This document shows positions 3,356-38,700 of a stretch of DNA of 64,000 bases, in pieces. The position numbers and the translations under genes were made by a program. Positions within the stretch are counted from its first letter, which is position 1. Each line of letters starts with the position of its first letter. Under the pieces are notes generated by a model, which did no database searches, was not told the DNA's origin, and worked only from the letters and a program-made list of their open reading frames with translations. This DNA is from Candidatus Poribacteria bacterium (GTDB taxonomy: Bacteria; Poribacteria; WGA-4E; PCPOR2b). The stretch lies in the NCBI GenBank assembly GCA_965215015.1, contig OZ244042.1, forward strand, positions 1,856,001-1,920,000, read 5' to 3'.

Positions 3356-3525
3356 GACTCCTTTTTTCAGTTTGTAGTAGCGCAATTCATTGCGCGTCTT
3401 TTAAGGGAGTAGGCATACACCGTATACCCTCCTTCCCTCCGCTTGCGGGGGGCTAGGGGGGTCTTAAGTACCTCACTTTTTGTACAGCACCGATGTACGA
3501 CGGATCTGATGAACCTGTTTCCTGC

Positions 3526-4383: not shown

Positions 4384-4423
4384 ATTATGCCTCCGTATAC
4401 AGTTTGGTGTACCACCCACTTCT

Positions 4424-4753: not shown

Positions 4754-4928
4754 CAAGCACCTCAAAAGGTAGCTGTTTGTCCTGCAATAATTCGATTTGA
4801 TGCCTCGAAACGATATAAACGTGAGCTTTAGAAATCCGCGTTGTTCCGCCTTCCTGAATCAATAATCGCCACGCTCTTCCCCAATCTGATTCGGGAAGTT
4901 TTATCACTGCCATTTTGTTGATCTCCAT
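4704..4928 (-). CDS. Small hypothetical protein (74 aa), partner of the downstream pseudogene
   Basis: ORF with RBS-like AGGACGG; overlapping two-gene cassette. Confidence 0.55.
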   Translation of the reverse strand: MEINKMAVIKLPESDWGRAWRLLIQEGGTTRISKAHVYIVSRHQIELLQDKQLPFEVLDESGRNLVRDLLASTI

Positions 4929-20261: not shown

Positions 20262-21056
20262 ATGAACCTTCCGAAGGTTTCATTGAGCAAGGAAGTCTGT
20301 ATTGTGCGAGTTATCCAAATTCTGTTTGTTAGTTGTTTCATCTTTCTGACCTTCTCGCTAGCAATTTCGGCAACCTGCTCGTTGCTTGACACCAAAAATC
20401 TCGATCAGGACCCTATTCAGATTGGCGAGGTACTGACCTACAGCGTCAAGATTAAGGGATTGCCTGCCGGGAGACAGGTGACAAAGGTCGTTGAAAAAAC
20501 GATGCTGGCAAATCAGCCGGTCTATCATTTCAGCTCGGAAAGGCAGACCGGGAGCCTTCTTGGAAAACTTTACCATTTCTACGATCAGACAGAAAGCTAC
20601 GTCACAACCGATCAGCTATACCCACTGAAATATGTTAGAAATTTAGAAGATCAGAAATATCGAGCGCGTGTTGAAATTGAGTTTGACCACGGCGGAGAGA
20701 CCGCGCAATATACCAAAAACCTGAGTAACAAGGCTCTGGACATCCCAATCGGCACACAGGATGATCTGTCAATGGTTTACTTCCTGCGTTCAAAGAAGTT
20801 GCAGGTCGGCCACACCTACAGATTTCCAGTGATAGTCAAGGATAAATGCGAACATGTTACCCTTGAAATCTACCGTCGTGAAATAATAAAAACCAAAGCA
20901 TTGGGACGCGTGGAAACATTGGTACTACGCACCTCGCATGGCTATCTGATGTGGCTCACAAACGATGAACGCCGTATTCCCGTCAGAATTGAAGCCGAGA
21001 CACCCCGTATCGGCAAACTAGTCGGTGTATTGGAGAAAATTGATTTTCTGGATTAG
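20262..21056 (+). CDS. DUF3108-like exported beta protein
   Basis: GEVLTYSV, D.LSMVYFLR, WLTNDERRIPVRI motifs. Confidence 0.7.
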   Translation: MNLPKVSLSKEVCIVRVIQILFVSCFIFLTFSLAISATCSLLDTKNLDQDPIQIGEVLTYSVKIKGLPAGRQVTKVVEKTMLANQPVYHFSSERQTGSLLGKLYHFYDQTESYVTTDQLYPLKYVRNLEDQKYRARVEIEFDHGGETAQYTKNLSNKALDIPIGTQDDLSMVYFLRSKKLQVGHTYRFPVIVKDKCEHVTLEIYRREIIKTKALGRVETLVLRTSHGYLMWLTNDERRIPVRIEAETPRIGKLVGVLEKIDFLD

Positions 21057-24000: not shown

Positions 24001-24554
24001 CCGGCAACATTCTTGGTTCCGAGCAGCACGGTCATATCACCGCTGTCGGTTACGACATGTACTGCAAACTCCTTGAGGAAGCGGTACAAAAACTCAAGGG
24101 CGAGGAGGTCGAAGAAAGGGTTGAAACACGGATTAACCTCCCTATTGAAGCCTACCTACCCGATGAATACGTCCCTGACAGCCGGCAAAAGGTGGCACTT
24201 TACAAAAAAATTGCTGCCCTAGAAACAGAAGTAGATCGAAAAGAACTTGAAGAGGAAATCGTTGACCGATACGGAAAAATCCCTGAGCCGGTTGAGATGC
24301 TCCTCGAAATTGCCGACTTGAAACAACTCAGTCAACAGCTAGGGGTTGATAGAATCGTCGCAGGCTTGGAAAGCATCAAAATCACATTTGATGAAGCAAA
24401 AACAAGCGTCGATCCTCGTAAGTTGATTCGACTTATCGAACAGGATCGGCGCGTCTCGCTTACACCCCCTGCACGTATGGCGGTCCGTATGACAGGCTTG
24501 GAGGGAAAAACACTCTTGCTTGCACTCAAGCGTATCCTTGGGAAATTAATGTGA
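21066..24554 (+). CDS. mfd: Transcription-repair coupling factor
   Basis: UvrB-homology region, CarD/RID VVHVSHGIGRY, GDVGYGKTEVA, DEEHRFG, QLRGRVGR, TRCF domain. Confidence 0.98.
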   Translation: MIDLLRQSNAYQSLVKTLTAQFSGVECAPISSNQQIDRPRPWLRGLHEASTAYLLSALAADFPDKSFLVVLPTQHEAEKIIQDLPAYHFDGGNLFPQWQNFLYDGISPTKNVVAERLICLYQLLKGDRAFIVTSIHALMHKILPQSLVESAFMTLRIGDEIAPDKVVEQLLRNGYQRVDLVEVKGELARRGDILDLYPLTTDAPIRIEFFGDEIDAIRAFNPASQRSVSDEGDDEQGAITLCPVREIILSPKTLDHWKTRAEILIQNNESPKYRNAINEITHRLETETNPEGLEALLPMLYEDTSILTDYLTPQTVVLLIEPNWMAREGRKLIEDTKDLYERKLAFDQFMVSPDETFVSFESVISALQTYPLVRTSLTPPGLNTEEQVEEIAFGMRPLGLPRSNYRMVMDQIKGWTDEGYFVNFLCDNPKSADRLHNILADRNLPATQTTVNIGSISEGFISETLKFITLSEDELFGREHRRHRKTAFKEGTPILSLIDLKEKDYVVHVSHGIGRYVGIRRLDIDGKPQDFLVIDYADGGRLYVPTYQIDLVQKYIGGQEDGKLRLDKLGGTSWERVKAKVKASIEQMATELLELYAIRESREGYAFPVDTPWQKDFEVLFPYQETPDQQKAIEEVKQDMECLQPMDRLICGDVGYGKTEVALRAAFKSVMAGKQVALLAPTTILTLQHFNTFQQRFDPFPVQVEMLNRFRTDKEAKRVVEGLANGTVDIVIGTHALLSNNIKFRELGLLVVDEEHRFGVKHKEKIKQMKQTVDVLTLTATPIPRTLHMSLVGIRDFSVINTPPENRLPIETYVMEYNPDVVRDAILREMERGGQIFFVHNRVQSIASIAAAIQDLVPLARVCMAHGQMPERQLEKVMMEFINHKYDVLVCTMIIESGVDIPTVNTILINRADAFGLAQLYQLRGRVGRDQYQAYGYLFYPPGRAITEGAQKRLRVIEEFTDLGSGFKIALRDLEIRGTGNILGSEQHGHITAVGYDMYCKLLEEAVQKLKGEEVEERVETRINLPIEAYLPDEYVPDSRQKVALYKKIAALETEVDRKELEEEIVDRYGKIPEPVEMLLEIADLKQLSQQLGVDRIVAGLESIKITFDEAKTSVDPRKLIRLIEQDRRVSLTPPARMAVRMTGLEGKTLLLALKRILGKLM

Positions 24555-24689
24555 GGTGTGAGTAAAGCCTGATGCGTATTACATAACACTGTTTGTGGGC
24601 ATACATATCTTGTTAACAATATGGGTGTACCACCAACCGCGAAGGCAATGTCTTCGCATTCCATACCAATCAAAAAGGAGCAATACACA

Positions 24690-25652
24690 ATGAAAAAAAT
24701 ATTGATAATTTTCGTCGTTATTATGGCGATCGGTTTAAGCAGCTGGCAGATTGTTCAATCGCAAGACGTTGTTGGGCCAATGGATGAACATCAGATTATT
24801 GTGGCTCAATACGAATGGAACGGCACTCATGAGATTTCGCTTGCAACACTTAATGCGGAAATTGCAGCACTGCCGGCACATAAACAGAAAGGCTACCAGT
24901 CCAAAGCTGGTAAGCTCATATTTCTGGAGGACTTCATCAACCAAAAACTAATGTTCCTCGCAGCTGCTGAGAAAGGGTTCGATAAAAATGAGGAGCTCTT
25001 AAAAAAAGGCGATGACTATAAGGATCAGTTAATGGTCGAACGCTTGACCGAAATTGAAGTCGATGAGAAAATTGTCATCACCGAGGACGCGCTTCGGCAG
25101 TATTATGAGGAAAATAAAGATACGTATGTAGATAAGGAAAAAGTGCGGGCAACTTGCATCACTGTATTCGATAAAGAGCTCGCACAAGCAACGCTAAAGG
25201 AGATTCAAGCCGGCAAAGACATCCTTGATGCGGCGAAAGAACTTGGGGAAAAAAAGGTACTGACTGGACCAGGCTCAAATCCGGGTGATCCGGGTGACAC
25301 CGGCTTCTTTACGCGAGATATTTCTGCACGTGCACAGGCGTTTGTTGACGCGGCCTTTGCTATGGAAGTCGGCGAAATGACCGAGGAGGTTTTTGAGCAG
25401 GAGGTTGAGGATGCTACCTATTATATGATCTTCCGAAAGGAAGAACATCAACCAGAACGCCAGCAGACCTTTGAAGAGGTCAAGCCTCGACTTGAGTATC
25501 CCCTAAAACGTGAGATGAAGCGGACTCGCATCCTAAAATGGTTAGAAGAGCTTACTGCACAAGCTGAACTCAAAACGTATCCAGAACTGCTTCCTCCGCC
25601 CGTGGTACCCGAAGAGGAAGAAGATCCAGAAAATGAAGAATCTGAGCAGTAA
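24690..25652 (+). CDS. PrsA/PpiD-like parvulin-type foldase, paralog 1
   Basis: Signal/TM, SurA-like helical region, YYEENK, VRATCITV..GDTGFF..FAMEVGEM..YYMIFR; AAGGAG RBS. Confidence 0.82.
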   Translation: MKKILIIFVVIMAIGLSSWQIVQSQDVVGPMDEHQIIVAQYEWNGTHEISLATLNAEIAALPAHKQKGYQSKAGKLIFLEDFINQKLMFLAAAEKGFDKNEELLKKGDDYKDQLMVERLTEIEVDEKIVITEDALRQYYEENKDTYVDKEKVRATCITVFDKELAQATLKEIQAGKDILDAAKELGEKKVLTGPGSNPGDPGDTGFFTRDISARAQAFVDAAFAMEVGEMTEEVFEQEVEDATYYMIFRKEEHQPERQQTFEEVKPRLEYPLKREMKRTRILKWLEELTAQAELKTYPELLPPPVVPEEEEDPENEESEQ

Positions 25653-25756
25653 GAGAATACAAAATTGGATAGATCTATCGTGTTCAGAAATTGGTTGACA
25701 AATGGGTGGCGAAGTCGAATAAGTGTATATCACGCAAAATTTAAGGAGGTATAACT

Positions 25757-26749
25757 GTGAAACTATTGGGAATTATTGGTTTTATCTTAATCGGTGTTGT
25801 TGCTGTTAGTATTTCTTTGAACGGGTGTGGCGGAAAAGCCGGAGCTGAAGGCACTGTGATTGCTGAATTTGAATGGAATGGAAAACACTACGTCACGCTC
25901 GAAGAGATGCTACAGGAGATAAGCGAACTTCCTACGTATAAACAACAACAGTACCAAGAAGTAGAAGGCGGGTTTGAGGAATATATGAACCTGATGGCGG
26001 AGAGCCGACTCATACTTTGCCTGGCCAAAGACCGAAAGCTGGATGAGGATGCCGGGGTTCGGAAAAAGGTGCAAGATTATTACCATGAGTTACTCGTTGA
26101 CAGAATTACGGAAATTGAAGTCGATCAGAAACTTAAACTGACCGAGGAAGATTACCGTATTTATTATGAAGAAAATAAAAGTGATTATGTGGTGCCGGAA
26201 CAGGTGCGACTCACCTGTATAACCCTTACAAATGAGGAACGATCGAAGGCGGTCTTTGAACGAATCAAGGGGGGCGAAGACATTGTTGCCATTGCAAAGG
26301 AGCTACAAGGAAACAACGAGTTAGTCGGACCGGGAGCAAATAACGAACTCCCCGGCGACACCGGATTGTTCGATAACAAGGTATATTCTCGACGCGCAAA
26401 GGCGTTTAGCGATGCGGCGTTTGCACTGGAAGTGGGTCAAATGAACGAGGAGATTCTCCATATCGAACTTGATGGCGAGAACTATTACCTAATCTTTCGT
26501 AAGGAGGAGGTCCAGCCGGAACGTCAACAAACACTTGAAGAAAACAGTGTACGACGCAATGTGGAAAGACAAGTAGAGCATCAGAAGCGTGAAGAACTTA
26601 TGACCGATTGGCTGATCCGACTCCATGAACAAGCGGAGGTCAAAACCTTTGCAGAGCGAATCCCCGACACGCCAGAGCCAGAGGAGGAAGTAGAAAGTGA
26701 ATCGTCCGATGAGGGTGAGGCCTCCGCTGAACCTGAAGCCGAACCTTAG
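25757..26749 (+). CDS. PrsA/PpiD-like parvulin-type foldase, paralog 2 (probable lipoprotein)
   Basis: LNGC lipobox; colinear with paralog 1 (EWNG.H, TEIEVD.K, YYEENK, PGDTG.F); AAGGAGG RBS. Confidence 0.82.
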   Translation: MKLLGIIGFILIGVVAVSISLNGCGGKAGAEGTVIAEFEWNGKHYVTLEEMLQEISELPTYKQQQYQEVEGGFEEYMNLMAESRLILCLAKDRKLDEDAGVRKKVQDYYHELLVDRITEIEVDQKLKLTEEDYRIYYEENKSDYVVPEQVRLTCITLTNEERSKAVFERIKGGEDIVAIAKELQGNNELVGPGANNELPGDTGLFDNKVYSRRAKAFSDAAFALEVGQMNEEILHIELDGENYYLIFRKEEVQPERQQTLEENSVRRNVERQVEHQKREELMTDWLIRLHEQAEVKTFAERIPDTPEPEEEVESESSDEGEASAEPEAEP

Positions 26750-26752
26750 AAA

Positions 26753-26960
26753 TTAACGTACTCCCAAACCTAAAGGATTGGGAGTCTAGGATTGTTAGTG
26801 TGCCGCTAACAAGTGTCCCATTGCTATAGGAGTGGAATTAGGGTATCAACGACTCTTGCGAGCCAAAACCCGTTTGACGGTGTCTCCTCCAATGGACAAA
26901 TTCTTAAAAAAAACGCTAAAGCGCATGGGTGTATCCCCAAGATAAATCTTGGGATTTTAC
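26753..26960 (-). mobile_element. Non-autonomous IS605 derivative (PATE) retaining both ends and the omega-RNA scaffold
   Basis: Reverse complement aligns to 8200-8273 (CGTTGAT..AATTCCACTCCTA..GGGACA..CCTTTAGG.TTGGGAGTACGT.AA); other end has hairpin CCCAAGATAAATCTTGGG preceded by TTTAT. Confidence 0.75.
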
Positions 26961-27010
26961 ATAAAGGATTTTTGATAAAACTTTGAATTAGGAAGGAGGC
27001 ATACTCCTAA

Positions 27011-28300
27011 ATGAAAATGTTTCGTTTCTGTACCCTGATTCTATTGACTGTCTATTTTGGAATCAATCCTGCCGCTGCACGAAGATTCGATCAGATTATC
27101 GCTTATGTCAACAATGACGTAATCACCAAATGGGAGCTCGACAGCGTCGTGAGTCAAAAAGCGATGGAGCTCCAGCAAGTTTATCGGTTCAGTGAACGTG
27201 AAGCGATGCAAAAGGCAGAGCAAGAACGAGCTGTGCTCCTCGATCAATTAATTCGCCAGATGCTTCTCGTCGAAGCAGCGTTAACGCTAAAAATCGAGAT
27301 CACAGAGGCTGAAGTGGAGCAATATCTGCAAAACTTCAAAGACCAGTACAAGATCGAGACCGAAGCGGAGCTTGCTCAAGCGTTAAAGAAAGAAGGATAT
27401 ACCCTGATGTCTTTCCGTGAACAAGCTAAACGCAATCTGATGGCAGAACGACTCGTAATGCAACGTATCCTTCCTAGACTCCAAATCCGGGACTCGGATG
27501 TGCAGAAGTTCTTTGAAGAAAACCGCTCGCAATTGCCAACTAAAATAGACAGAGTCCATCTTCGGCACATCTTTGTTGCTTTCAAGCCGAGCGAGACAGA
27601 TCGCAAGCTAGCCCTTGACAAAATCGACACCATTCTTCAGGAATTAAAGGCTGGGAAGGATTTTGAGAGACTCGCGCAACGCTATGCTAGCGATGAAGGA
27701 AGAAAGGCAGGGATTGGACTATTAAACGAACTACCGACTGCGGAGATGGACAACCTCTCCCCTACCTTCCGTGATACACTTGCGGCACTCAATGCCGGTG
27801 AGACCAGCGAGCCAGTTGAAGGTAATGATGGGTTTTATCTTTTTAAAGTTGAGCGTAAAGATGATCAGACCATCGCTTTTCGTCATTTGGTTGTCAGTCT
27901 GAAGCCGAGTGAGGAGGCGATGGAAGCTGCTTATGAACGCACTGATAGTCTCCTCCGACAGCTAAACCAAGGTGAAGACTTCAACATGCTCGCCCGACAA
28001 TACTCCGACGATTCACAGACGAAAGCCAACGGTGGTGATCTCGGGGTCCGTTCACTCAGTGAGCTAAATCCCGACACTCGGGAAATTATCGAAGGGCTTT
28101 CTATCGGAGCGCATAGTGCGCCGGTCAAAACAACGTATGGCACGCATATTTTCAAAATCGATAGCCGTACTGCCCCCGAATTGGGCGATGCTGAAAAAGA
28201 CCAGGTCCGAATAATGCTGCGTCAGCAAAAATTTCAAGAGGAATGGCAACTTTACACGGATCTACTCAAGGAAAATTCCTTCATAAAAATTAGGGAATAA
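27011..28300 (+). CDS. surA: SurA-like periplasmic chaperone/PPIase
   Basis: DQIIAYVNNDVIT SurA N domain, two parvulin domains (LRHIF..FERLAQRY; FRHL..LARQYSDD..GGDLG..YGTHIFK). Confidence 0.88.
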   Translation: MKMFRFCTLILLTVYFGINPAAARRFDQIIAYVNNDVITKWELDSVVSQKAMELQQVYRFSEREAMQKAEQERAVLLDQLIRQMLLVEAALTLKIEITEAEVEQYLQNFKDQYKIETEAELAQALKKEGYTLMSFREQAKRNLMAERLVMQRILPRLQIRDSDVQKFFEENRSQLPTKIDRVHLRHIFVAFKPSETDRKLALDKIDTILQELKAGKDFERLAQRYASDEGRKAGIGLLNELPTAEMDNLSPTFRDTLAALNAGETSEPVEGNDGFYLFKVERKDDQTIAFRHLVVSLKPSEEAMEAAYERTDSLLRQLNQGEDFNMLARQYSDDSQTKANGGDLGVRSLSELNPDTREIIEGLSIGAHSAPVKTTYGTHIFKIDSRTAPELGDAEKDQVRIMLRQQKFQEEWQLYTDLLKENSFIKIRE

Positions 28301-28680
28301 GTCGTTACTGGCCTTTAATAAAACGCAGGAACGCCAGGGGGCTAAGACGCCTGGACGCTCAGAAAATCGAGACAATAAGAAAACGAGCAAACCGGCTTCC
28401 CTGCGTCAGGGAAGGGGGGCTTCATCCCGAATGATTTCAACACCGGCCTGTGAAGCTTTGTCTAACAGGCGTTGTAAAGTCGATCGGAAAGCAGAAAAAA
28501 ATCTTTATTCACTTTTTTTGCTTTGTGTCCTAGCGTCCAAGCGTTAAATTCAGACGCGTGAACCGGCGCAGAAGACTGAAGATCTTCGTGAATCTATGAT
28601 GCGGTAAGCATTCCCTGTGGAGGGCAACCGAATCAGAACTGGCACCCCCGCTTGCGGGGGACTGAGGGGGTAGGTCTTGT
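28296..28680 (+). repeat. Composite repeat family C, long copy
   Basis: Shares ordered modules with 44587-44865, 751-860 and 6408-6600. Confidence 0.75.
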
Positions 28681-28757
28681 GCCTGCTCAAAGCGGACAAC
28701 CACAAAGGTTGCTGCTCTTGAATAGTTGGTTTCACAGCGTAACAGAGGAAAGGTAGG

Positions 28758-31700
28758 ATGGAAAGGAGGGAAGAACAGAAACGACAAAATATAGCGAGAA
28801 AAGGAGGGAAATCAACTTTCCAGTTTTCCACCCCTCTTTCTCCCCAATTGCTTAATCGTTTTTTAAGATGCACGTTTTACCTTCTACGTTTTACGTCCCG
28901 TGTATCACTTTTTATACTTCACATCCTATCACTCGCGATTCTCACGTTCAGCCTAATTTCGCCCACGGGTGAATTGGCCGCCCAAACTGACCCGCCACCT
29001 GCTACCGATGAAGAGGTTTCCGGCATACAGACTGAGACGCCATCAGAAACCTCTCTAGCGACAGAGCCATCTGATCCCGAAGCCCCCGTTGATGAGGAAT
29101 CGTCCGCAATAGCCCCTGAAGAAACATCAGAAACCCCGACAGTCCCAGACGCATCTTCACCTGAAGAACCCGCCCAAACCAGTCGAAAACTCGATCCGGA
29201 GAACATGTCACCCGAACCGGGGGACCTGCTTGCAAAGGGCGATGATCTGACTTTTCACAATAACCTTATCCAAATCCACGGCAATGGACTGATCAAATAC
29301 GACGAAGTTGTGCTCTATGCTGACCATATCTGGGCAGACTTTGAGGAAAATATGATGCGGGCATCGGGAAACGTGCATCTCCTCGTCGGGAACGAAGAAA
29401 CTTTCGCAAACGAACTCCTTTACAACATAAAAACAAAAAAAGGAATTATTCGCGAAGGGTTCACTTTCAGTGATCCATGGTACTACCGCGGTACTGACAT
29501 CTTCAAAGTCGAAGATGATGAATCCTACATCCGTGGTGGAACTTTGACAACATGCTCTCTCAAACACCCCCACTTCTACTTCAGCGCATCTCAGATTATC
29601 GTCAAGATAAACAAAGAGTTGATTGCCAAGAATATCGTTCTGAGGATCGGGGGGGTGCCGCTCTTCTATTTTCCTGCCTACCGCCGTGATCTTCGCAAGG
29701 AAGACAAGGTCGCCAAAATCATCGTCAAAGTTGGAACTGATAGCTATCAGGGGGTATTCCTTAGCGTAATCTTGCCACTGGCGCGTCGCCAGCGATATGA
29801 CGGTGCCCTGCTGTTCGATCACTCGAGCCGTCGAGGAAGTGGAGGGGGTTTTGAAGGGAAATACCGTGTAAACGATGTCCGATTCCAAGAGATTCTCGTG
29901 CCTTTGCATCCCGATGCAACACCGAGCGAGCGAGCGAAACTAGAAGAGAAAGCGCAGGAATTATCAGACCGGCTGGAGGGCGAGTATGACCGGTATCAGC
30001 TGCGCCAACTCTTTCTGGAATATAAAATCTCTGAAGAAGACATCGCCGCTGCTCTCGAAAAGGCGGAGAACATCCAGGCCCAACTACAAGAGGCAGACGC
30101 AGATTTCGCAAAGATTGCACAAGATAAATCAACCGATCAGGAGACGCGCTATCAGGGGGGTGACATGGGGTTTTTGGTGCGAGGGGAACGGGATGAAGAA
30201 GACAAACTGCGGCTAGATCCAATCCTCGAAGAGGCTATCTTTCAACTCGAACCGGGGGAAATTACACCGATTCTCAGGACAGAAGCTGGATTCCATATTT
30301 TAAAGGTCGATCGTGCGCTTGATGTATATGGTCAACGAGAACTCCAGATTAGCCGAATTGATGTAGCAATCGAACCAAGCCAAGAGACCCGCGACACAAT
30401 TCAGATGACCGCAAAAGAAATCCAGGAACGCGCAGATGCAGGAGAGGTACTCGAACAATTAGTTGGACAATATGAGGGAGTTGAAGTTTCTGAAGCTAAT
30501 GAAGGCGCAGGGTTTCTGTTGAATGAAATGGATCGGCGTTGGAAGCACCCCGTAAGCCGACTAGAGACCCCTGGAGAAATAACTTGGCCCATATACACCG
30601 ACCGAGGTGTCTATATCCTTCAGTTAATCGAAAAGGAACCGACCCCGACCTTTGAAGAAATTGCACGTCAATTTGAAGCGGAATGGGAAGCGATTGAAAA
30701 GGAATTGGGGCAAACTGCAACAACAGAAAACGATGAAAGTGAACAACAGGAAGAAGGGATAGAGGGACAGGATAGTCACGAGATAAACACGGATGGGGCG
30801 GGAAGCGAAGAGAAGGCTGATAGAGGGACACCAGAAGATAACCCACAAGGTGCTTTGAAGCCCGATAAAATCGGGGACGATGAGACAACGGATCTGCCGG
30901 AAGAAGATACGGAACCGGAGAAGGTGCAGGTCTACCAGCAATACGATTATCGAGGACGGTGGGAGACGCTGCCCCAAATCTTCTCACAATCACAGCGACT
31001 CTATGCCGGAGATCACAGCTCAATGATCAAGACAGGTACTGGATATCGTCTGATTAAAGTCGATAAAAGGCGTACTTATAGGGGCGACCTCTACTTTTAT
31101 ACCAATGATGAGTTTTCTTTTAATCGCCAAAAGCCATTCAAAACGGGGCGGCGATGGAATCTCCGGTGGGGGCACCGGCACGCTTTCTACACACCGTGGG
31201 ACAGCCGGGCCAGGGGACGACGGCCTGTGAGTTTTGTAGGACGGGTGGCGTGGCGAGCAAAGGATTTTGAAGAGGAGGGATTTGGAATCAGTGAATCTAC
31301 TATCAATTCTTTTGGTATGTTCACATGGGGAACCGCCTTTCATTCGCTGAATTATCAAGATAGAGACGAAGACGGAAACTTAAAATTTTCGCACAAGACA
31401 ATTGGGGAATTCTTGGGACGGCTACAGGTTAATCATACCTTAAACCTTACGGGTGAAGGGACAACAACCTTGCAAAAGCTACCCGCACTCAATCTTTCGC
31501 TTAGACGCATGCGCTTAGATCGGTTGCCTGTTTTCAAAACTATTAATTCAGGGCTAACCGAAGTTGCCGATCGGTTATACACCGAGCTCCCAATCCTTTC
31601 GATGTTTGCCTTTCCGACGCTTGAGAACATCAGTTTTGATCTGGAGACGAACTTCGGTAATTTTTTCCGTGAACGGTTTCGAGACGAAGAAAATGTCTAT

Positions 31701-32741
31701 TTGCAAACAATGGATCTCGGGTTTGATCTTCGTAAGCAATCAGTACTCCAAATAATCCCGAATCGCGAGTTGCGACTCGACGCGGATTTCGACACCAACC
31801 TCATTTGGCATGACAAAGATCGGGAAGGAAATCAGAATATTTTCCGAGGTATATACAGCACCCGGCTCTCTGCCAGCAATCTGCTGTTTCGGATCTATGA
31901 CATCAGCTTCATTCCAGGGGCGCGGCGGATGCGCCATCAAATCAACTCAAGGGTATCATTTGATTACGCACCACCTGTCGACAGAGAAGATGCTCCCCAA
32001 CTCTATCCCTTTGGTCCAAGTGTCTACTTCTTTGAAAGGAAGAACCTCGCCTATAACTTAGATACCAGTATTGAAGTTAAAACCCGCGGCAGCAAATCTG
32101 CGCTTCGAGTGCTTCATTTTAACACACGAGTATCGGTGGATTTTACGAAATTTGAGGCGTTGGGTGAACGGCGATATGTACCGATTGAAAGCACGCTGAC
32201 GATAGTTCCACTGGCGAGCCGAAACCTGAATTTCAGGTTCAGATCGACACACGACCCGAATCAATCGCACCTTGATGGAAAGCGACTGAAACAGATTGGT
32301 TTCCGCTCCAACGTCAGTTATCGCCGCGACACATGGAATATAACGTTTGGAAACGCTTTTACCAAAAGAACGCAACGTGCCTCTCGATTTCTCACCGGTA
32401 GTTTTCGATTTCGCCCCAGCCGATTGCTTGAGTTGAACCTCAGTGTCAATTATGACTGGATCGAAAAACAATTCTACTCACAAAGTATAACACTACGGCG
32501 AAACTTACACGATTGGAATATGACGATTAGATGGAACCGCATCGGGATTAAGCGGGAACCACCCTTCGATAATGTGCGACAAGACTTCACTTTTCAGATT
32601 AATCTGATTGCAGAGCCCGCTGCCTCAGTTGGGCTTGGCTATGACGCTACAACGGATACATGGGGATTCCGTACCCTGCCCGCTGGCGTTCCTTACGACG
32701 CCTTTGGGGTCGGAAACTCACTTGGACGCTCTTACTTCTAA
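28758..32741 (+). CDS. lptD: LptD-like LPS assembly outer-membrane protein with inserted parvulin domains
   Basis: Beta-jellyroll (YADHI..ASGNV..ELLYN), TTC..PHF..A..I..AKN..L..VPLFY.P, SSRRG.G..E.KY, C-terminal amphipathic strands (RNLHDW..FQINL); rotamase motifs at about 29870-31075. Confidence 0.82.
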   Translation: MERREEQKRQNIARKGGKSTFQFSTPLSPQLLNRFLRCTFYLLRFTSRVSLFILHILSLAILTFSLISPTGELAAQTDPPPATDEEVSGIQTETPSETSLATEPSDPEAPVDEESSAIAPEETSETPTVPDASSPEEPAQTSRKLDPENMSPEPGDLLAKGDDLTFHNNLIQIHGNGLIKYDEVVLYADHIWADFEENMMRASGNVHLLVGNEETFANELLYNIKTKKGIIREGFTFSDPWYYRGTDIFKVEDDESYIRGGTLTTCSLKHPHFYFSASQIIVKINKELIAKNIVLRIGGVPLFYFPAYRRDLRKEDKVAKIIVKVGTDSYQGVFLSVILPLARRQRYDGALLFDHSSRRGSGGGFEGKYRVNDVRFQEILVPLHPDATPSERAKLEEKAQELSDRLEGEYDRYQLRQLFLEYKISEEDIAAALEKAENIQAQLQEADADFAKIAQDKSTDQETRYQGGDMGFLVRGERDEEDKLRLDPILEEAIFQLEPGEITPILRTEAGFHILKVDRALDVYGQRELQISRIDVAIEPSQETRDTIQMTAKEIQERADAGEVLEQLVGQYEGVEVSEANEGAGFLLNEMDRRWKHPVSRLETPGEITWPIYTDRGVYILQLIEKEPTPTFEEIARQFEAEWEAIEKELGQTATTENDESEQQEEGIEGQDSHEINTDGAGSEEKADRGTPEDNPQGALKPDKIGDDETTDLPEEDTEPEKVQVYQQYDYRGRWETLPQIFSQSQRLYAGDHSSMIKTGTGYRLIKVDKRRTYRGDLYFYTNDEFSFNRQKPFKTGRRWNLRWGHRHAFYTPWDSRARGRRPVSFVGRVAWRAKDFEEEGFGISESTINSFGMFTWGTAFHSLNYQDRDEDGNLKFSHKTIGEFLGRLQVNHTLNLTGEGTTTLQKLPALNLSLRRMRLDRLPVFKTINSGLTEVADRLYTELPILSMFAFPTLENISFDLETNFGNFFRERFRDEENVYLQTMDLGFDLRKQSVLQIIPNRELRLDADFDTNLIWHDKDREGNQNIFRGIYSTRLSASNLLFRIYDISFIPGARRMRHQINSRVSFDYAPPVDREDAPQLYPFGPSVYFFERKNLAYNLDTSIEVKTRGSKSALRVLHFNTRVSVDFTKFEALGERRYVPIESTLTIVPLASRNLNFRFRSTHDPNQSHLDGKRLKQIGFRSNVSYRRDTWNITFGNAFTKRTQRASRFLTGSFRFRPSRLLELNLSVNYDWIEKQFYSQSITLRRNLHDWNMTIRWNRIGIKREPPFDNVRQDFTFQINLIAEPAASVGLGYDATTDTWGFRTLPAGVPYDAFGVGNSLGRSYF

Positions 32742-32880
32742 TACCAAACCTACAGTGCAAAGAGCAGCTAATTCCCCTGCTTGTGGCGATTCTTTGTGTT
32801 TCTTGAGGGCAGCTCTCTTTTTTTTACGCAGAAATCAGGAATTTGCATAACGCGATCACCAAGATACTCTATAATATAAC

Positions 32881-32915
32881 GCCTTGTCTGGCATAATCAG
32901 GACAAGGCTTTTTTA
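32881..32915 (+). terminator. Intrinsic terminator after the lptD-like gene
   Basis: GCCTTGTCTG..CAGGACAAGGC followed by a T run. Confidence 0.7.
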
Positions 32916-32930
32916 TTTTTTAACTCTCTA

Positions 32931-32990
32931 TTGACTACTTAACAGATATATGCTATATTAAATCCTGTAAAATTATGAGGATATATCCTC
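32931..32990 (+). promoter_or_regulatory. sigma70 promoter of uvrA with downstream 14-bp palindrome
   Basis: TTGACT-17-TATATT with extended TG; GAGGATATATCCTC at 32977-32990. Confidence 0.55.
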
Positions 32991-33141
32991 GAATCCATTC
33001 CATTAGCTCCCTACCTGCCGCAATTAGTCCTTCTTACTGCTGTGAAAAAGTGTGTTGCTGACACCTCAGATCTATGGTAAAATGGAACACATCGGGCACC
33101 CAATTTGAGAATGCATTAAGATACAGAATCTCGCTAAATGA

Positions 33142-36100
33142 ATGGAATCGCCTGTTACTACCGAAAGACCTTCAGTCAAAGGAAAACTTATGCCGGAGGA
33201 ATTTATCGACATCCGCGGCGCACGCGAACATAATCTCAGAAACATCAATCTCAAACTCCCCAAAGATAAGCTCATTGTCTTCACCGGTGTCAGTGGTTCC
33301 GGGAAATCATCGCTGGCATTCGATACAGTCTACGCTGAAGGCCAACGCCGCTATATCGAATCCCTCTCCGCTTATGCCCGTCAATTCCTTGGACAATTGG
33401 AAAAACCCGACGTCGACTTCATCGGCGGCCTTTCTCCATCCATCTCGATTGATCAGAAGTCGGGGGGAAACAACCCTCGCTCAACGGTCGCAACAATCAC
33501 AGAAATCTATGACTACCTACGCGTCCTGTTTGCGCGTGTGGGCACAACGCACTGCCTAGAGTGCGGCGCACCGGTGGGTGCCCAAACCGCAGAGGCAATT
33601 ATTGACCAAATCGTGAACCTACCGCCGCGGACTCGTATCTTAATCTTAGCACCAATCGTCAGTGGACGCCGCGGCGAGTATCGTGAACACCTTGAGGACG
33701 CACTCAAGGCGGGGTTTATTCGCGCACGGATTGATGGACAGGTTTATGACCTGCCGGCTGAAATTCAGCTAGACCGCAATCAGCGGCATAACATTGAAAT
33801 TGTCATTGACCGGATTATTGTCAAACCCGATATCCGCAGCCGCGTTGCAGAAGCGGTCGAAACCGCGCTGCGGATGGGAGAGGGCCGCCTGATTGTAAAC
33901 ATCGTCGAAGGAGAACTAGATGCAGGCGACCTCTTGTTCGGGGTGGACTATACCTGTGTGCACTGCAATATCAGCTATGAACCCCCTGCCCCACGAAATT
34001 TCTCGTTCAATAGCCCTGCGGGGATGTGCCCGACCTGCAAGGGGCTCGGAACGTTAACGAAGATGGACCCCAATCTGGTTGTCCCCGACCCAACGCTATC
34101 GATTGGGAACGGAGCGATTGTCTTTTGGGGGCAGCTTGACACACTACAGACACGACATTACGCCGAGAGTTTGGCAGCACATTTCGGTTTCAGCCTTGAC
34201 ACACCGTGGGAACAGTTGAGCGAGGCGCATCAGCACGCCATCCTTTATGGCACTGGAAAAGAGGAGATTCCTTTCGTCTATCGTTCCCGTCGAAACCGCC
34301 GCTATAAGTACCAAGCCACGTTTGAGGGTGTGATTCCACCCGAAGAACGAAAGTATTTCCAAGCAACCTCAGAGATTGTGAAGCGGCACTACGGAAAATA
34401 TATGGTCTCCGGCACATGTCTCGATTGCAACGGGACGCGACTCAAGCCAGAGATCAAGGCTGTGACGATCGATGGGAAATCCATCCTTGACGTCGTCGAA
34501 ATGGCGGTCGGAGATTGTTTTAGGTTCTTTGAAAAACTCCAGCTGCCTGCGCGTGAGGCGTTCATTGCGACCGATTTGCTGAAAGAGATACAAGGACGCC
34601 TCTGGTTCTTGATGAACGTTGGGTTACACTACCTCACCTTGGATCGCACCGCACCGACGCTTTCCGGGGGCGAGGCACAACGAATTCGGTTAGCCAGCCA
34701 GATTGGGGCAGGTTTGCGAGGCGTAGTTTATGTCCTCGACGAGCCCAGTATCGGCTTGCACCCGCGTGATAATCAGCACCTCCTCACGACGCTAAAGCAT
34801 CTCCGCGATCAGGGCAACACCGTAATCGTTGTGGAACATGACGAAGATACAATGTGGGAGGGAGATATGATCGTTGATTTCGGACCGGGCCCAGGAATCA
34901 AGGGCGGTGAGATTGCCGCAATCGGTACGCCGCAAGAGGTCGCTGAAGGGTCAACCTCTCTGACAGCACAATATCTCCGTGGTAAACAACAGATTGACAT
35001 CCCTACCGAACGCTGTCCAATTGGAAATCAATGGATCGATGTCTGTGGGGCGCGCCACAACAATCTCAAAGACGTTGATGTGCGAATTCCGATCGGGATT
35101 TTCACCTGTGTGACGGGGGTCAGCGGTTCTGGCAAAAGCTCCCTCATCAACGATATTCTATACGAGGGGCTTGCCCGTGATCTGATGAAGGCACATGCAC
35201 AACCGGGAGAGCACGATCTCATCCGGGCAATTACTATAGAGGACGAACCTCCGACCAATCAGGGGCAATGCACATCTGTGTCTCCAATTGACAAGATCAT
35301 TGATAAAGTCATCGATATTGATCAGTCGCCGATTGGGCGGACACCGCGATCGAATCCAGCCACCTACACCAAAGTATTCGATCAGATCCGTGCCCTTTAC
35401 GCCGAGATGTCTGAGTCCAAACTGCGCGGTTACAAACAGGGACGTTTCAGCTTCAATGTCAAAGGCGGGCGATGCGAAGCCTGCGAAGGCAATGGCTCAA
35501 AACGGATCGAAATGCACTTTATCGCCGATGTTTGGGTGAAGTGCAATATTTGTCACGGAAAACGGTATAACGACGAAACGCTACAGGTCGAATATAGAGG
35601 GGCGAACATCTCTGATGTAATCAACATGGACGTGCAAGAGGCTTTAGAGCACTTTGCGAACGTGCCGAAAATTGCAAAGATTCTACAAACCCTGCACGAT
35701 GTCGGTTTAGACTACATCAAGCTTGGGCAGCCAGCACCAACGCTCTCCGGGGGCGAAGCACAACGTATTAAGCTGGCGCGGGAGCTCGCTAAACGCAGCA
35801 CAGGCAAAACCCTCTATATCCTCGATGAACCGACAACTGGCTTGCATTTCGACGATGTCAGGAAACTCCTAAAAGTCTTGCACCAACTCGTTGATAGGGG
35901 CAACACCGTTGTCGTCATTGAGCACAACCTAGAAGTAATAAAAACAGCAGACTATCTTATAGACCTCGGGCCCGAAGGGGGTGAAGAGGGCGGCTATGTC
36001 GTTGCAACGGGGACACCGGAGGAAGTGGCAGCGGTTGAGGAATCGTATACGGGAATAGCGTTGAAGCCGGTACTGGAGTCGAGAAAAATAGAAGAACCTC

Positions 36101-38700
36101 CGACCAATCCTATGCAATATGCAATACACAGTACGCCGCACGTCCTGCAAGAGTCAACAACCTCTTATGAATTGACTAATAATAATGAGCAGAAATACAT
36201 TTCTGTGCATGGGGCGCACGAACACAATCTGAAGAACATCAGTGTAGACATTCCCCATCGGAAGCTCACGACGTTCACCGGCGTGAGCGGGTCAGGGAAA
36301 TCATCCCTGGCGTTGGACACCATCTACGCAGAGGGGCAACGACGCTATATTGAATCCCTTTCAGCGTATGCGCGGCAATTCTTAGGACAATTGGAAAAAC
36401 CGAAGGTTGAGAAGATTGAAGGACTCTCGCCCGCGATTGCCATTGAGCAGAAAGCTCCGAGCAAGAATCCGAGATCCACGGTCGGGACGGTCACAGAAAT
36501 TTACGACTACCTGCGTGTGCTTTATGCACGAGTTGGAATCGCCCACTGCCCGCAGTGTGGGTTGGAAATCAGTGCACAATCCGTGCAGCAGATTGTTGAC
36601 AAAGTTATGGAGTTGCCAACTGCAGCACGGATTTATGTCCTGTCTCCGTTGGTGCTGCGACCGAATGAGGATTATCCCAATGCTTTCCAACGTCTACAGC
36701 GGGACGGCTATGCTCGCGTTGAAATTGACGGACAAATTCACCCAATTGATCAAGCACCGAAAATCGGGAAGAGCATCCGACACGATGTTAAAATTGTTGT
36801 CGATCGTCTCGCCCTCGAACCCGATGAACGCGGGCGCTTGGCAGAAGCTATCGAAACGGCAACGCAGCAGAGTGGTGGAACGGTGACGGTGGGGTTAATA
36901 AACGAGGGAAAGCAGAAGGGTGAAGGTGCGGGAATCACACATCATGTCTTCAGTGAACATTTTGCCTGTGTCCCGTGCGGTTTGAGTTTTCCTGAACTGA
37001 CACCGCGGCACTTCTCATTTAACAGCTCTATCGGTCAATGTCCGACGTGCGAAGGTATTGGGACAATTGGACATCGGTTACACACCTGTCAGGAGTGCGA
37101 GGGCACACGAATTCAGCCCTTGGCAAGAGGTGTGACATTGGGGCAGAAAACTATCGCTAAGTTGACAGCGATGCCAATTGGAAGGACTGCCAGCTTCTTC
37201 GAGCAGCTCAAGCTGCCAACCCATCAGATGGAGATCGGCAGAGAATTGCTCAAAGAGATTCAACAACGCCTTCGATTCCTTGTTGATATTGGTTTACACT
37301 ACCTGACCCTAGATCGACCCGCACCAAGTCTCTCCGGCGGAGAGATGCAGCGTATCCGTCTGGCAAGCCAACTTGGCAGCGGTCTCACAGGAGTGACGTA
37401 CATCCTTGATGAACCGAGTATTGGATTACACCAGCGAGATCAGGAACGCCTCCTGAATGCATTGAAAGGACTCCGGGACCTTGGCAACAGTGTCCTAGTT
37501 GTTGAACACGACTTGGAAACCATGTTGGCATCGGATCACATTCTCGATTTTGGGCCACGCGCTGGAAAGTTCGGGGGTGAGATTGTTGCCGCCGGGGGGG
37601 CGACTCAAATTCAGCAGAGCGAAAATTCACTGACAGGCGGATACCTCACTGGAACGCTCAAGATTGAAGTCCCTCCGCAAAGACGCCAAGGCAAAGGCGA
37701 GAGGCTTGAGATGGTGGGTGTCCAAACCAATAATCTACAGAATATCAATGTCCAGATCCCGTTAGGGACACTGACATGCGTAACAGGAGTTTCCGGCTCA
37801 GGAAAAAGTTCACTGATTGAGGAGACGCTGTATCCTGTGCTCGTTTCTAACCTGAATCGGACGCGGATGCGATCAGGAAAATATCGAATGATTCGTGGAT
37901 TGGAATATCTTGACAAAGTAATCAACATCGATCAGCAGCCAATCGGGGACACCCCACGATCGAATCCAGCCACCTACACCGACCTGTTCACCAAGATTCG
38001 TTATCTCTTTGCCGATCTGCCGGAGTCCAAGGTCTACGGTTTCGATTCTCGTCGATTTAGTTTCAACCAGAAGGCGGGACAATGCGAAACATGTCGCGGG
38101 CACGGCTTCAATAAGGTTGAGATGCACTTTCTCGCAGACGTGTGGGTTAAATGTGAAACATGCAGCGGCACCGGCTACAACCGCGAAACCTTGCAAATCC
38201 GCTACAAGGGCAAAACCATCGCTGATATTCTAGGGATGACAGTCCAAGAAGCACTAAATCATTTCCAAAGCGTACCGACTATCCAAAGACCCCTGCAGAT
38301 GCTATACGATGTCGGCTTGGATTATATCGAACTCGGTCAGGCAGCGACAACGCTTTCTGGGGGCGAATCTCAACGTGTCAAGCTGGCGCGTGAACTCTCA
38401 AAGCGGAGCACCGGCAAAACCATCTACATCATGGACGAACCGACAACAGGTCTGCATTTTGATGATGTACAGAAGCTGTTGATAGTGCTCAACCGCTTGG
38501 TGGACAAAGGTAACACCATTGTCATCATTGAACACAACATGGATGTAATCAAAACCGCCGATTGGATTATTGACCTAGGTCCAGAGGGTGGAGCTGAGGG
38601 GGGCAAGGTTGTCGCTATGGGAACGCCAGAAGAAGTAGTGACCGTCGAGGAATCACATACGGGCAGGTTTTTGCAGAAGGCACTCACGACACCAACCTGA
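33142..38700 (+). CDS. uvrA: Excinuclease ABC subunit A, double-length (four ABC domains)
   Basis: Four GVSGSGKSS Walker A and four LSGGE signatures, two AEGQRRY motifs; alternative start at 33190. Confidence 0.97.
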   Translation: MESPVTTERPSVKGKLMPEEFIDIRGAREHNLRNINLKLPKDKLIVFTGVSGSGKSSLAFDTVYAEGQRRYIESLSAYARQFLGQLEKPDVDFIGGLSPSISIDQKSGGNNPRSTVATITEIYDYLRVLFARVGTTHCLECGAPVGAQTAEAIIDQIVNLPPRTRILILAPIVSGRRGEYREHLEDALKAGFIRARIDGQVYDLPAEIQLDRNQRHNIEIVIDRIIVKPDIRSRVAEAVETALRMGEGRLIVNIVEGELDAGDLLFGVDYTCVHCNISYEPPAPRNFSFNSPAGMCPTCKGLGTLTKMDPNLVVPDPTLSIGNGAIVFWGQLDTLQTRHYAESLAAHFGFSLDTPWEQLSEAHQHAILYGTGKEEIPFVYRSRRNRRYKYQATFEGVIPPEERKYFQATSEIVKRHYGKYMVSGTCLDCNGTRLKPEIKAVTIDGKSILDVVEMAVGDCFRFFEKLQLPAREAFIATDLLKEIQGRLWFLMNVGLHYLTLDRTAPTLSGGEAQRIRLASQIGAGLRGVVYVLDEPSIGLHPRDNQHLLTTLKHLRDQGNTVIVVEHDEDTMWEGDMIVDFGPGPGIKGGEIAAIGTPQEVAEGSTSLTAQYLRGKQQIDIPTERCPIGNQWIDVCGARHNNLKDVDVRIPIGIFTCVTGVSGSGKSSLINDILYEGLARDLMKAHAQPGEHDLIRAITIEDEPPTNQGQCTSVSPIDKIIDKVIDIDQSPIGRTPRSNPATYTKVFDQIRALYAEMSESKLRGYKQGRFSFNVKGGRCEACEGNGSKRIEMHFIADVWVKCNICHGKRYNDETLQVEYRGANISDVINMDVQEALEHFANVPKIAKILQTLHDVGLDYIKLGQPAPTLSGGEAQRIKLARELAKRSTGKTLYILDEPTTGLHFDDVRKLLKVLHQLVDRGNTVVVIEHNLEVIKTADYLIDLGPEGGEEGGYVVATGTPEEVAAVEESYTGIALKPVLESRKIEEPPTNPMQYAIHSTPHVLQESTTSYELTNNNEQKYISVHGAHEHNLKNISVDIPHRKLTTFTGVSGSGKSSLALDTIYAEGQRRYIESLSAYARQFLGQLEKPKVEKIEGLSPAIAIEQKAPSKNPRSTVGTVTEIYDYLRVLYARVGIAHCPQCGLEISAQSVQQIVDKVMELPTAARIYVLSPLVLRPNEDYPNAFQRLQRDGYARVEIDGQIHPIDQAPKIGKSIRHDVKIVVDRLALEPDERGRLAEAIETATQQSGGTVTVGLINEGKQKGEGAGITHHVFSEHFACVPCGLSFPELTPRHFSFNSSIGQCPTCEGIGTIGHRLHTCQECEGTRIQPLARGVTLGQKTIAKLTAMPIGRTASFFEQLKLPTHQMEIGRELLKEIQQRLRFLVDIGLHYLTLDRPAPSLSGGEMQRIRLASQLGSGLTGVTYILDEPSIGLHQRDQERLLNALKGLRDLGNSVLVVEHDLETMLASDHILDFGPRAGKFGGEIVAAGGATQIQQSENSLTGGYLTGTLKIEVPPQRRQGKGERLEMVGVQTNNLQNINVQIPLGTLTCVTGVSGSGKSSLIEETLYPVLVSNLNRTRMRSGKYRMIRGLEYLDKVINIDQQPIGDTPRSNPATYTDLFTKIRYLFADLPESKVYGFDSRRFSFNQKAGQCETCRGHGFNKVEMHFLADVWVKCETCSGTGYNRETLQIRYKGKTIADILGMTVQEALNHFQSVPTIQRPLQMLYDVGLDYIELGQAATTLSGGESQRVKLARELSKRSTGKTIYIMDEPTTGLHFDDVQKLLIVLNRLVDKGNTIVIIEHNMDVIKTADWIIDLGPEGGAEGGKVVAMGTPEEVVTVEESHTGRFLQKALTTPT

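Follow-up and report, generated by a model that had tools for sequence, protein, structure and literature searches.

An LptD of Candidatus Poribacteria with a nested triple-parvulin module in place of a periplasmic barrel turn

Which envelope protein is encoded by a long open reading frame (ORF) in which Pfam recognizes little more than parvulin-type isomerase domains? The question is raised by a 64,000-nucleotide stretch of the Candidatus Poribacteria contig OZ244042.1 (the window), whose positions 28758..32741 (+) hold a single ORF of 1327 codons plus stop, without an internal stop codon. Its product, the 1327-residue protein P0001, gives two Rotamase stretches and a sub-threshold OstA_2 match in Pfam and nothing else, and the named examples of this protein that were retrieved are publicly called 'hypothetical protein', 'peptidylprolyl isomerase' or 'parvulin-like peptidyl-prolyl isomerase'. 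We conclude that the ORF, delimited by its translation and by full-length homologues of 51-86% identity, encodes the LptD of a diderm that makes lipopolysaccharide (LPS), the outer-membrane end of the Lpt export bridge, and that the turn between its barrel strands b4 and b5 is replaced by a 401-residue triple-parvulin module. The complete account, in which this identity is joined to a nested anatomy of the module and to a role as a tethered, non-enzymatic binding arm, we consider probable on balance.

A phmmer scan of 1.84 billion representative proteins with residues 156-1327 of P0001 returned two tiers of matches. The first is a handful of clusters that share both the N-terminal and the parvulin parts; the second (E ∼ 1e-30 to 1e-17) consists of many proteins of ∼ 650-800 residues that match the two ends of the query. 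Of five second-tier proteins that were tested, four have LptD_N as well as PF04453 and/or PF19838, and one has only weak jellyroll families. The family profile (alignment A1, 81 aligned sequences) matches 14 distinct solved LptD sequences with E-values from 4e-37 to 1e-14; in the full-length solved chains the alignment extends from the jellyroll to the last strands and includes the region of the ..CW motif. The same profile also finds LptA chains through the jellyroll (profile positions 47-103). The NCBIfam LptD model PRK04423 aligns residues 160-377 with its positions 63-282 (E 2.5e-6), which is the N-terminal part only and far below the cut-off.

The predicted fold agrees with this assignment. 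The AlphaFold2 model spans residues 156-1327 (model number + 155 = protein number) with a mean predicted local distance difference test score (pLDDT) of 80.5 and a predicted template modelling score (pTM) of 0.64. Full-length LptD chains fill all of the Foldseek ranks 1-15 (E 2e-19 to 1e-14), and VIA-align superimposes 595-621 residues on such chains with Z-scores of 16.2-21.1, whereas the best barrel that is not LptD reaches at most 13.9. The jellyroll is represented by model strands between residues 2 and 156, and the aligned ranges begin at model residue 1, equivalent to E. coli residue 51; for chains that comprise the barrel alone, the alignment begins at model 162-168, which is paired with E. 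coli 223-231. A 26-strand, LptD-type barrel is predicted, whose strand count agrees with E. coli numbering as far as the b24-b25 turn, where it was checked at the cysteine site, and P341 of strand b2 is the counterpart of E. coli P246 in the alignment. The LptD-type barrel was reproduced in the model of an orthologue, G001, which is ∼ 35% identical (pLDDT 83.7, pTM 0.64).

Some observations weigh against the assignment. Neither PF04453 nor PF19838 matches P0001 at E ≤ 0.1, PF04453 matches in 0 of the 176 species genomes of the phylum, and the model lists 28 strand elements instead of 26. The two final elements are short strands predicted with little confidence, which we read as belonging to a C-terminal tail that would follow b26 (residues 1284-1327, 32607..32738, +; model E1135-1141 and E1146-1152, pLDDT < 50 from model residue 1154); this tail of ∼ 44 residues is predicted as two short strands in the G001 model too, again at low confidence. 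As the Pfam LptD models do not match, membership of P0001 in the LptD family is based on the profile and the fold. Could the barrel then be some other large outer-membrane barrel with an OstA-like N-terminus? The silent Pfam models and a missing barrel-side disulfide cysteine (see below) would suit such a protein, yet the profile alignment reaches the C-terminal strands of solved LptDs, LptD chains outrank every other barrel (Z 16-21 versus ≤ 13.9), and PF19838 is a precomputed match in 4 of the best 120 listed homologues. We therefore regard a non-LptD barrel as extremely unlikely, the more so because the genome, despite its remaining Lpt machinery, offers no other candidate.

That genome is closed (one contig of 5.94 Mb, 98% complete). 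It contains no PF04453 or PF19838 match, and the only match to P0001 in it is P0001 itself. It does encode LpxC (290.3 bits), two LptF/G proteins (281.5 and 257.3 bits), an LptA-like protein (54.5 bits) with LptC in the adjoining gene (35.6 bits), and LptE (32.3 bits). A sole LptD candidate in a genome that encodes LpxC and the rest of the Lpt machinery leads us to assign the ORF as the LptD of an LPS-making diderm. As a separate observation, the LpxC match (4178393-4179193) lies within an open frame of 430 residues, ∼ 160 longer than the LpxC domain, and a fusion is possible there.

Since Pfam sees only Rotamase, one might suspect that an isomerase gene had been mis-joined to something else, either by a chimeric assembly or by two or three genes being misread as one. 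We consider such an artefact next to impossible: the frame is open throughout, a single long ORF recurs across the phylum, in many closed genomes of one contig as well as in the deepest lineages, and the strands on either side of the module form one LptD barrel. Contigs from three studies also cover 29600-31400, with both junctions, in one piece and without an indel or joint; they differ from the window by 0 (X2, identical, which may be its source), 8 (X5) and 66 (X9) positions, and a further run, X7, yielded short pieces only. A chimera and a C-terminal part that forms no LptD barrel were the two structural objections that an earlier, sequence-only reading of this locus had raised against itself, and both fall away.

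The protein is general in the phylum. A homologue was found in 174 of the 176 species genomes and in all 133 high-quality ones; the two in which none was found have a completeness of 90% and 81% and are split into 730 and 600 contigs. A word-indexed search gave 376 proteins at E ≤ 0.001, and the best 120 of these all carry Rotamase families and are 51-100% identical to P0001 over 82-100% of the query, some being named Candidatus Poribacteria. The five deepest lineages examined have one long frame each (1120-1319 codons) in which all parts are covered, the frame of G003 reaching its contig end. Mean identity to P0001 among 44 relatives is 56-66% for the module and 64% for the barrel. The module, being conserved about as well as the barrel, thus appears to be under selection, as judged from these alignments. 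A partial copy of 789 residues (P0127) carries the public label Candidatus Gottesmanbacteria, which is probably a binning error; to our knowledge, members of that group are not expected to make LPS.

Outside this family no parvulin was seen in an LptD: of the best 150 representatives, the 115 from other lineages that have at least 600 residues (P0129-P0269) gave no match to hidden Markov models (HMMs) of the parvulin segments. Seven long LptD relatives (P0170, P0197, P0220, P0225, P0243, P0249 and P0252; 1014-1294 residues) all lack Rotamase, and their additional length is made of repeated OstA/LptD_N units, extra jellyrolls in an N-terminal extension of ∼ 330-500 residues. By their sequence, these extra units would amount to a built-in LptA-like bridge.

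Where in LptD does the module sit? Compared with 36 insert-less LptD relatives, residues ∼ 373-796 are left unmatched by MAFFT, which misplaced one strand; HMMER alignments to solved LptDs and the positions of motifs refine the insert to residues 373-773 (29874..31076, +). On its left lie the periplasmic β-jellyroll (residues 157-311, 29226..29690, +; delimited by PRK04423, the profile matches to LptD and LptA and the model strands) and strands b1-b4 (residues 322-372, 29721..29873, +; from the DSSP assignment of the model and residue mapping to E. coli LptD), which end in GFEGKYRVN (residues 364-372). On its right the barrel resumes with YRGDLYFYTNDE (residues 774-785) and continues through b5-b26 (residues 774-1283, 31077..32606, +), as indicated by DSSP, Foldseek, VIA-align and the profile, which aligns as far as the C-terminus of solved LptDs. 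In canonical LptDs a turn of 2-4 residues joins the strands that align with GFEGKYRVN and YRGDLYFYTNDE. Residue counting along the E. coli row maps the module to S280-G283, between b4 and b5, and the same row places P231, P246, C173, C724 and C725 at their published numbers. E. coli P231 and P246 lie on the first and second barrel strands, according to the available text of PMC6164715. The model shows four strands between jellyroll and module (residues 322-328, 332-343, 347-356 and 360-382; DSSP E167-173, E177-188, E192-201 and E205-227), and in one VIA-align row model residue 620 is paired with E. coli residue 285, the barrel resuming right after the module. Because four strands precede it and because of this pairing, we interpret the module as a replacement of the b4-b5 turn.

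The periplasmic jellyroll leads into b1, and the b24-b25 turn of E. coli LptD is periplasmic (stated in the accessible portion of bioRxiv 10.1101/2025.04.10.648201); turns from an even to an odd strand should consequently all be periplasmic, so that strand parity predicts the periplasmic side for the module. As an internal check, counting strands in the model puts the C725 equivalent after the 24th and before the 25th. In the model the module very probably stands on a long β-hairpin stalk under the barrel rim, four strands away from the b1/b26 lateral gate and beside the jellyroll; the models do not fix exactly where it lies with respect to jellyroll and lumen, which counts against too literal a picture. 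The sequence-only reading had described an insert at about 29870-31075, lying after an LptD jellyroll and the first strands of an LptD-type barrel and probably at a periplasmic turn, and these points are borne out by the profile, Foldseek and VIA-align and by the mapping to an even-to-odd turn. It had also spoken of a chaperone tethered inside the translocon, and here it needs amending, as the module is instead suspended below the barrel, at its periplasmic rim.

The module itself is, very likely, an outer parvulin whose chain is interrupted behind its first helix, where two whole parvulins, which we call A and B, are inserted; this nested order had been proposed by the sequence-only reading, and profile comparison, HMM matches in relatives and two AlphaFold models speak for it. 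In the P0001 model b4 runs unbroken into a β-strand from residue 374, which is followed by a helix (residues 389-406), a full parvulin A (residues 412-523) and a full parvulin B (residues 526-626). After B come a helix (residues 632-655) and an acidic loop (residues 653-721; pLDDT ∼ 25, and < 50 for model residues 498-566), then a strand (residues 726-732), a helix (residues 739-747) and a long strand (residues 762-786) that becomes b5. In terms of segments, the N-terminal piece of the outer parvulin (residues 374-411, 29877..29990, +) supplies β1, continuing b4, and α1 (hhalign, an HMM of its own that picks it up in every relative, and model E205-227/H234-251). The inner units occupy residues 412-524 (A, 29991..30329, +; Pfam Rotamase and matches to parvulin and PrsA entries of the PDB) and 525-628 (B, 30330..30641, +; Pfam Rotamase and the alignment of A with B by hhalign). 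The outer α2 (residues 629-652; model H477-500) and the disordered acidic loop, of low pLDDT, share 30642..30920 (+), and the C-terminal piece (residues 722-773, 30921..31076, +) would provide β2, α4, β3 and β4, the last leading into b5 (hhalign, BLASTP, and model E571-577/H584-592/E607-631).

The inner units are recognized without difficulty. Pfam Rotamase (PF00639) scores 96.9 bits over its two stretches in P0001, and by segment gives E 6.4e-20 for residues 424-518 and 1.3e-5 for residues 540-624; these units also match PDB entries of parvulin, PrsA and SurA. The outer parvulin is harder to see, and two results weigh against it: Pfam reports no family at all for residues 620-790 or 720-790 (residues 373-420 give a weak DUF6381 match and no Rotamase), and the hhalign probability of the N-terminal piece is only 31-63%. 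These hhalign comparisons were made profile against profile with sub-alignments of 45 insert-bearing sequences. The positive control, A versus B, reached 97.3% over most of the domain, and four controls with jellyroll or barrel segments gave 0.1-1.0%. The C-terminal piece (residues 739-770) aligned with positions 79-110 of A at 95.6% (E 1.2e-8) and with positions 67-103 of B at 81.8%, the N-terminal piece with positions 5-37 of A (31%) and 7-37 of B (63%), and the helix after B with positions 40-51 of B (25%). The three pieces of the outer parvulin are thus colinear and complementary.

Relatives without the acidic loop make the outer parvulin easier to recognize. In these proteins the stretch that follows B is matched by positions ∼ 35-110 of the parvulin-A HMM and by no others, with E-values of 8.8e-11 (P0126), 4.7e-8 (G001) and 9.6e-7 (P0122) in a range that extends to 4e-5, and the model of G001, which has no acidic loop, shows the order β1, α1, [A, B], α2, α3, β2, α4, β3, β4. 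By BLASTP, the C-terminal piece, ..LYAGDHSSMIKTGTGYRLIKVDKR, matches the end of the second parvulin (P2) of SurA at E 0.003. The acidic loop (30714-30920) is Glu/Asp-rich and of low complexity, is absent in P0122, P0124 and P0125, and is 27% conserved against 56-66% for the remaining module. The four segments occur in the same order in 139 of 140 retrieved proteins, the exception being a 665-residue fragment; the count is partly circular, because the HMMs were built from 45 of the 140.

How close is the module to SurA? A stand-alone SurA of 429 residues, with SurA_N and two parvulins (Pfam, NCBIfam), is encoded directly upstream (27011..28300, +), and by BLASTP the A-B pair is colinear with its parvulins P1 and P2 (25% identity over 220 residues, E 1e-13). 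The resemblance of the inner pair to the adjacent P1-P2, which had been pointed out from the motifs KISEE/EPSQE versus KPSET/KPSEE, is therefore real. The wider label 'SurA-like', however, applies to the parvulin pair and not to the SurA N-terminal chaperone core, which is absent from the module: the SurA_N families PF09312, PF13624 and PF13623 have no match in P0001 at E ≤ 0.1, whereas the neighbouring SurA matches all three. The P1-P2-like pair is the only part shared, and P0001 is not a member of the SurA family. A tree was built from the parvulin units (37 rows, 108 columns). In it, all copies of unit B fall into a single clade (93/92), as do those of the unit at a fourth site, described below (99/98); unit A is divided between two groups, the units of SurA do not form a single clade and the deeper branches are unresolved. 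In no case does an LptD unit cluster with the SurA from the same genome, from which we deduce that the fusion is old and is not a recent copy of the neighbouring gene. HMM cross-scores favour the pairing of B with P2 in all four SurAs compared and of A with P1 in three, the fourth being tied, which is weak evidence for a descent of A from P1 and of B from P2 that the tree does not resolve.

The active-site residues suggest that the units do not act as enzymes. We placed the two canonical catalytic histidine positions from Pin1 and Par10, whose residues we take to be the reference. At these positions unit A has Q417 (38 of 45 sequences) and H513 (41/45), unit B R533 (42/45) and Y619 (38/45), and the outer unit E378 (45/45) and R764 (37/45). 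Most of the catalytic histidines are thus replaced and no unit has the canonical pair, whereas P2 of the neighbouring SurA has both. The module units are likely non-catalytic, as far as such residues can tell. A point against this is that unit A keeps, besides its second histidine, the Asp of the S-x-D motif in P0001, so that a residual isomerase activity of this unit is possible. The P1 domain of E. coli SurA has no isomerase activity, and most of the chaperone activity of SurA is carried by the core domain.

What might a parvulin module do on LptD? We tentatively favour a permanently tethered, non-enzymatic, parvulin-type chaperone or assembly arm that serves LptD itself. Such an arm might hold unfolded barrel segments of its own LptD during assembly or, alternatively, dock nascent LptD and its partners at the assembly machinery; it would be neither an isomerase nor part of the LPS path. 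We read it as a non-enzymatic binding arm because the histidines are mostly replaced, the SurA core is missing and lineages differ in their number of units (three or four). An aid to assembly is suggested because no other outer-membrane protein of E. coli relies on SurA as heavily as LptD does (from the available text of PMC3747590), the inner pair is SurA-like, the unit number varies and SurA is encoded by the upstream gene. Several considerations weigh against this proposal. Client binding by the module is something that we infer; a free SurA has been kept next door, so the need for a built-in chaperone is not obvious; and the way in which b4 and b5 run rigidly on into the outer parvulin in the model would fit a structural role equally well.

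The features that link the module to SurA could also be read in another way, with LptD as a mere anchor in the outer membrane and the parvulins acting in trans as a general chaperone for other outer-membrane proteins or lipoproteins. The colinearity of the inner pair with P1-P2 and the varying number of units would be in keeping with this, and the four consecutive parvulin genes at the locus suggest a shared envelope-folding function. But no clients are known, the SurA core domain is absent from the module, and LptD, which is of low abundance in E. coli (again as given in the available text of PMC3747590), would make a poor anchor. We consider this general role improbable.

The tethered assembly arm has its main rival in a structural brace, a rigid buttress that would position the jellyroll against the barrel or stabilize the LptA-LptD junction and have no chaperone role. 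In E. coli this job falls to the interdomain disulfides C31-C724 and C173-C725 and to the accessory lipoproteins LptM and LptY. The outer parvulin directly continues the b4-b5 hairpin through two long strands (E205-227 and E607-631), and the loss of most catalytic histidines is as expected of a brace. Moreover, according to the accessible portion of bioRxiv 10.1101/2025.04.10.648201, LptM of E. coli touches b1-b4 from the periplasmic side, and the jellyroll is stabilized by LptM and LptY. A contact between module and jellyroll would be putative, however, and the models do not decide between these readings; a complex prediction of the jellyroll (residues 156-320) with the module (residues 373-773) scored 0.00 with controls not run and is evidence neither way. 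Nor are three or four domains, in variable number and with a second site six strands away, obviously needed for bracing.

This second site was found in the deep lineages. A fourth parvulin lies between the strands equivalent to b10 and b11 in G001, in G003 and in the P0125 and P0126 clusters (14 of 140 proteins), which is once more an even-to-odd and hence periplasmic turn. The G001 model shows b10 running into the fourth parvulin, whereas the corresponding turn of P0001 (residues 920-957, 31515..31628, +) holds a helix only (model H769-784 and H790-793). The deep orthologues with a fourth parvulin include L017 (G001:C5, ORF 899-4855, -) and L018 (G003). After the fourth parvulin a further β1-α1-like fragment was noticed (HMM B positions 5-40; model E760-772 and H780-796).

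The cysteines of the interdomain disulfide follow the number of parvulins. The closest insert-less LptDs keep cysteines at the C173 and C725 places (35 of 36 for each in alignment A1, 31 of 32 for each in A2), and so do all seven four-parvulin rows, which have both. None of the 21 three-parvulin rows has the barrel-side cysteine, and three of these 21 lack both. P0001 reads HDW where relatives read HCW: C266 in the jellyroll (29553-29555, +) is aligned with E. coli C173, and D1252 (32511..32513, +) stands at the C725 place in the b24-b25 turn. With a single cysteine in mature P0001, no interdomain disulfide is possible; this bond is a conserved functional feature that the studied LptDs need, though not a formal criterion of the family, and P0001 lacks it. 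LptA does not bind LptD with wrong disulfides, to go by the available text of PMC6164715.

For the brace these counts cut both ways. If none of the three-parvulin rows has the C725 equivalent, which 31 of 32 insert-less relatives keep, other means must hold the jellyroll. Yet the deep four-parvulin lineages have the module together with both cysteines, which shows that the module came first, and the idea that it replaced the interdomain disulfide at its origin was rejected on this ground. The barrel-side cysteine was probably lost in one event or a few, so that the correlation of module and cysteine carries almost no statistical weight. Taken together, we think the brace unlikely as the role of the module. 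A composite history is a little less likely still: in it, the translocon of this phylum would carry a chaperone or scaffold of its own that altered the maturation of LptD; a disulfide-linked ancestor had parvulins at two turns (b4-b5 and b10-b11), the fourth unit and the disulfide were dropped in the main radiation, and the covalently attached triple module took over jellyroll positioning and the quality control of assembly, which in E. coli depend on oxidative folding, LptM and free SurA.

Set against known systems, P0001 is first of all an LptD. Like the proteobacterial LptDs (E. coli, Shigella, Klebsiella, Pseudomonas and Neisseria; 4q35, 5iv9, 8h1r, 7omm and 9ia0) it has a jellyroll and a 26-strand barrel that can be aligned throughout, the b2 proline at P246, the jellyroll cysteine at C173, and a genome with LptA, LptC, LptE and LptF/G. 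It differs in the 401-residue three-parvulin module that stands for a b4-b5 turn of 3-4 residues, in the absence of a C725 equivalent, in an 80-residue acidic linker before the jellyroll and in having no Pfam LptD barrel match. With SurA (PDB 1m5y and the neighbouring gene) the module shares the tandem parvulin pair; unlike SurA it has no N-terminal chaperone domain or C-terminal tail, its pair sits inside a third parvulin and not in a SurA core, it is covalently part of an outer-membrane barrel, and its units are old orthologues across the phylum.

PrsA, PpiD and a Bacteroides peptidyl-prolyl isomerase (8hm3/8hm4) likewise use a parvulin as a module in a larger envelope-folding protein, and 8hm3_B is the best structural match that is not LptD (Z 16.2, 206 residues aligned, model 255-473). 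Their scaffolds are helical chaperone domains, soluble or anchored in the inner membrane, whereas here the scaffold is itself a parvulin on an outer-membrane barrel. The usher plug of PapC/FimD is a domain inserted between two barrel strands, one small domain that fills the lumen. The module resembles it as a folded domain between consecutive barrel strands, but comprises three domains at two nesting levels and hangs into the periplasm. LptM and LptY, finally, place extra mass at the periplasmic b1-b4 side and the jellyroll, the neighbourhood in which the module is found; they stabilize the jellyroll and assist LptD maturation, but are separate small lipoproteins of unrelated folds that are confined to Enterobacterales (all according to the accessible portion of bioRxiv 10.1101/2025.04.10.648201), and no homology to the module was found or is claimed.

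Could the architecture have been catalogued before, as the sequence-only reading had allowed? The public names are those cited at the outset, a hypothetical protein or a parvulin-like isomerase, and no description of an LptD-parvulin fusion was found in full-text searches of the literature, subscription journals and supplementary files lying outside the search. The parts belong to known families; what is new within the literature searched is a two-level nest of parvulins in an LptD turn, present phylum-wide and with a four-unit, disulfide-bearing variant. An insertion of three domains at two levels in a periplasmic barrel turn is very unusual, and it shows that the barrel-assembly machinery is able to handle a folded periplasmic module of 400 residues in mid-substrate. 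Because PF04453 is blind in all 176 genomes, LptD would wrongly be counted as absent when the envelope of these sponge-associated bacteria is reconstructed.

LptD is the classic example of a SurA-dependent, slow-folding, disulfide-checked outer-membrane protein, and a target for antibiotics. A natural fusion with SurA-type parvulins provides a comparative handle on the role of parvulins in barrel assembly and on the way in which the jellyroll is held, and the lineage series, four parvulins with the disulfide against three without it, is useful for the same purpose.

The remaining part of P0001 is its N-terminal region (28758..29222, +), defined by translation and composition. It consists of residues 1-75, with a signal-like hydrophobic stretch that ends in ..ELAAQ, and the acidic linker (residues 76-155, 28983-29222), which is Pro/Glu/Ser/Thr-rich, of low complexity and precedes the jellyroll. 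The region is variable, alignment with other genera beginning only at residues ∼ 95-120, and the start codon is a putative one. The composition profile shows no break at the borders of the module (GC content 0.45-0.53), and the acidic-loop region is its only purine-rich part.

Upstream, parvulin domains are found in four consecutive genes (24621-32741, +): two Rotamase_2 proteins of 343 and 330 residues (24621-25652 and 25757-26749, +; Pfam), SurA and LptD. They are preceded by genes for a DUF3108 protein (20262-21056) and Mfd (21066-24554). An upstream ORF with two parvulins also neighbours the orthologues in G001, G003 and G017. The spacer between surA and lptD is unusually long at 457 bp (28301-28757). 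An Rfam search of 28200-28900, which covers the spacer and the start of the gene, gave only chance-level microRNA matches (E 0.16-0.51, far under the gathering scores), and a scan of 26700-33200 for promoters and terminators stayed at chance level (9 found versus 7.3 ± 2.5 expected, and 10 versus 7.8 ± 2.6). Within that scan, which is at chance level overall, a terminator-like site follows the lptD stop codon at 32805-32817. Directly downstream of lptD, an ORF of 1852 residues (33142-38700, +) joins two complete UvrA proteins one after the other in a single frame, a tandem fusion with two stretches of UvrA_inter as well as ABC and DNA-binding domains.

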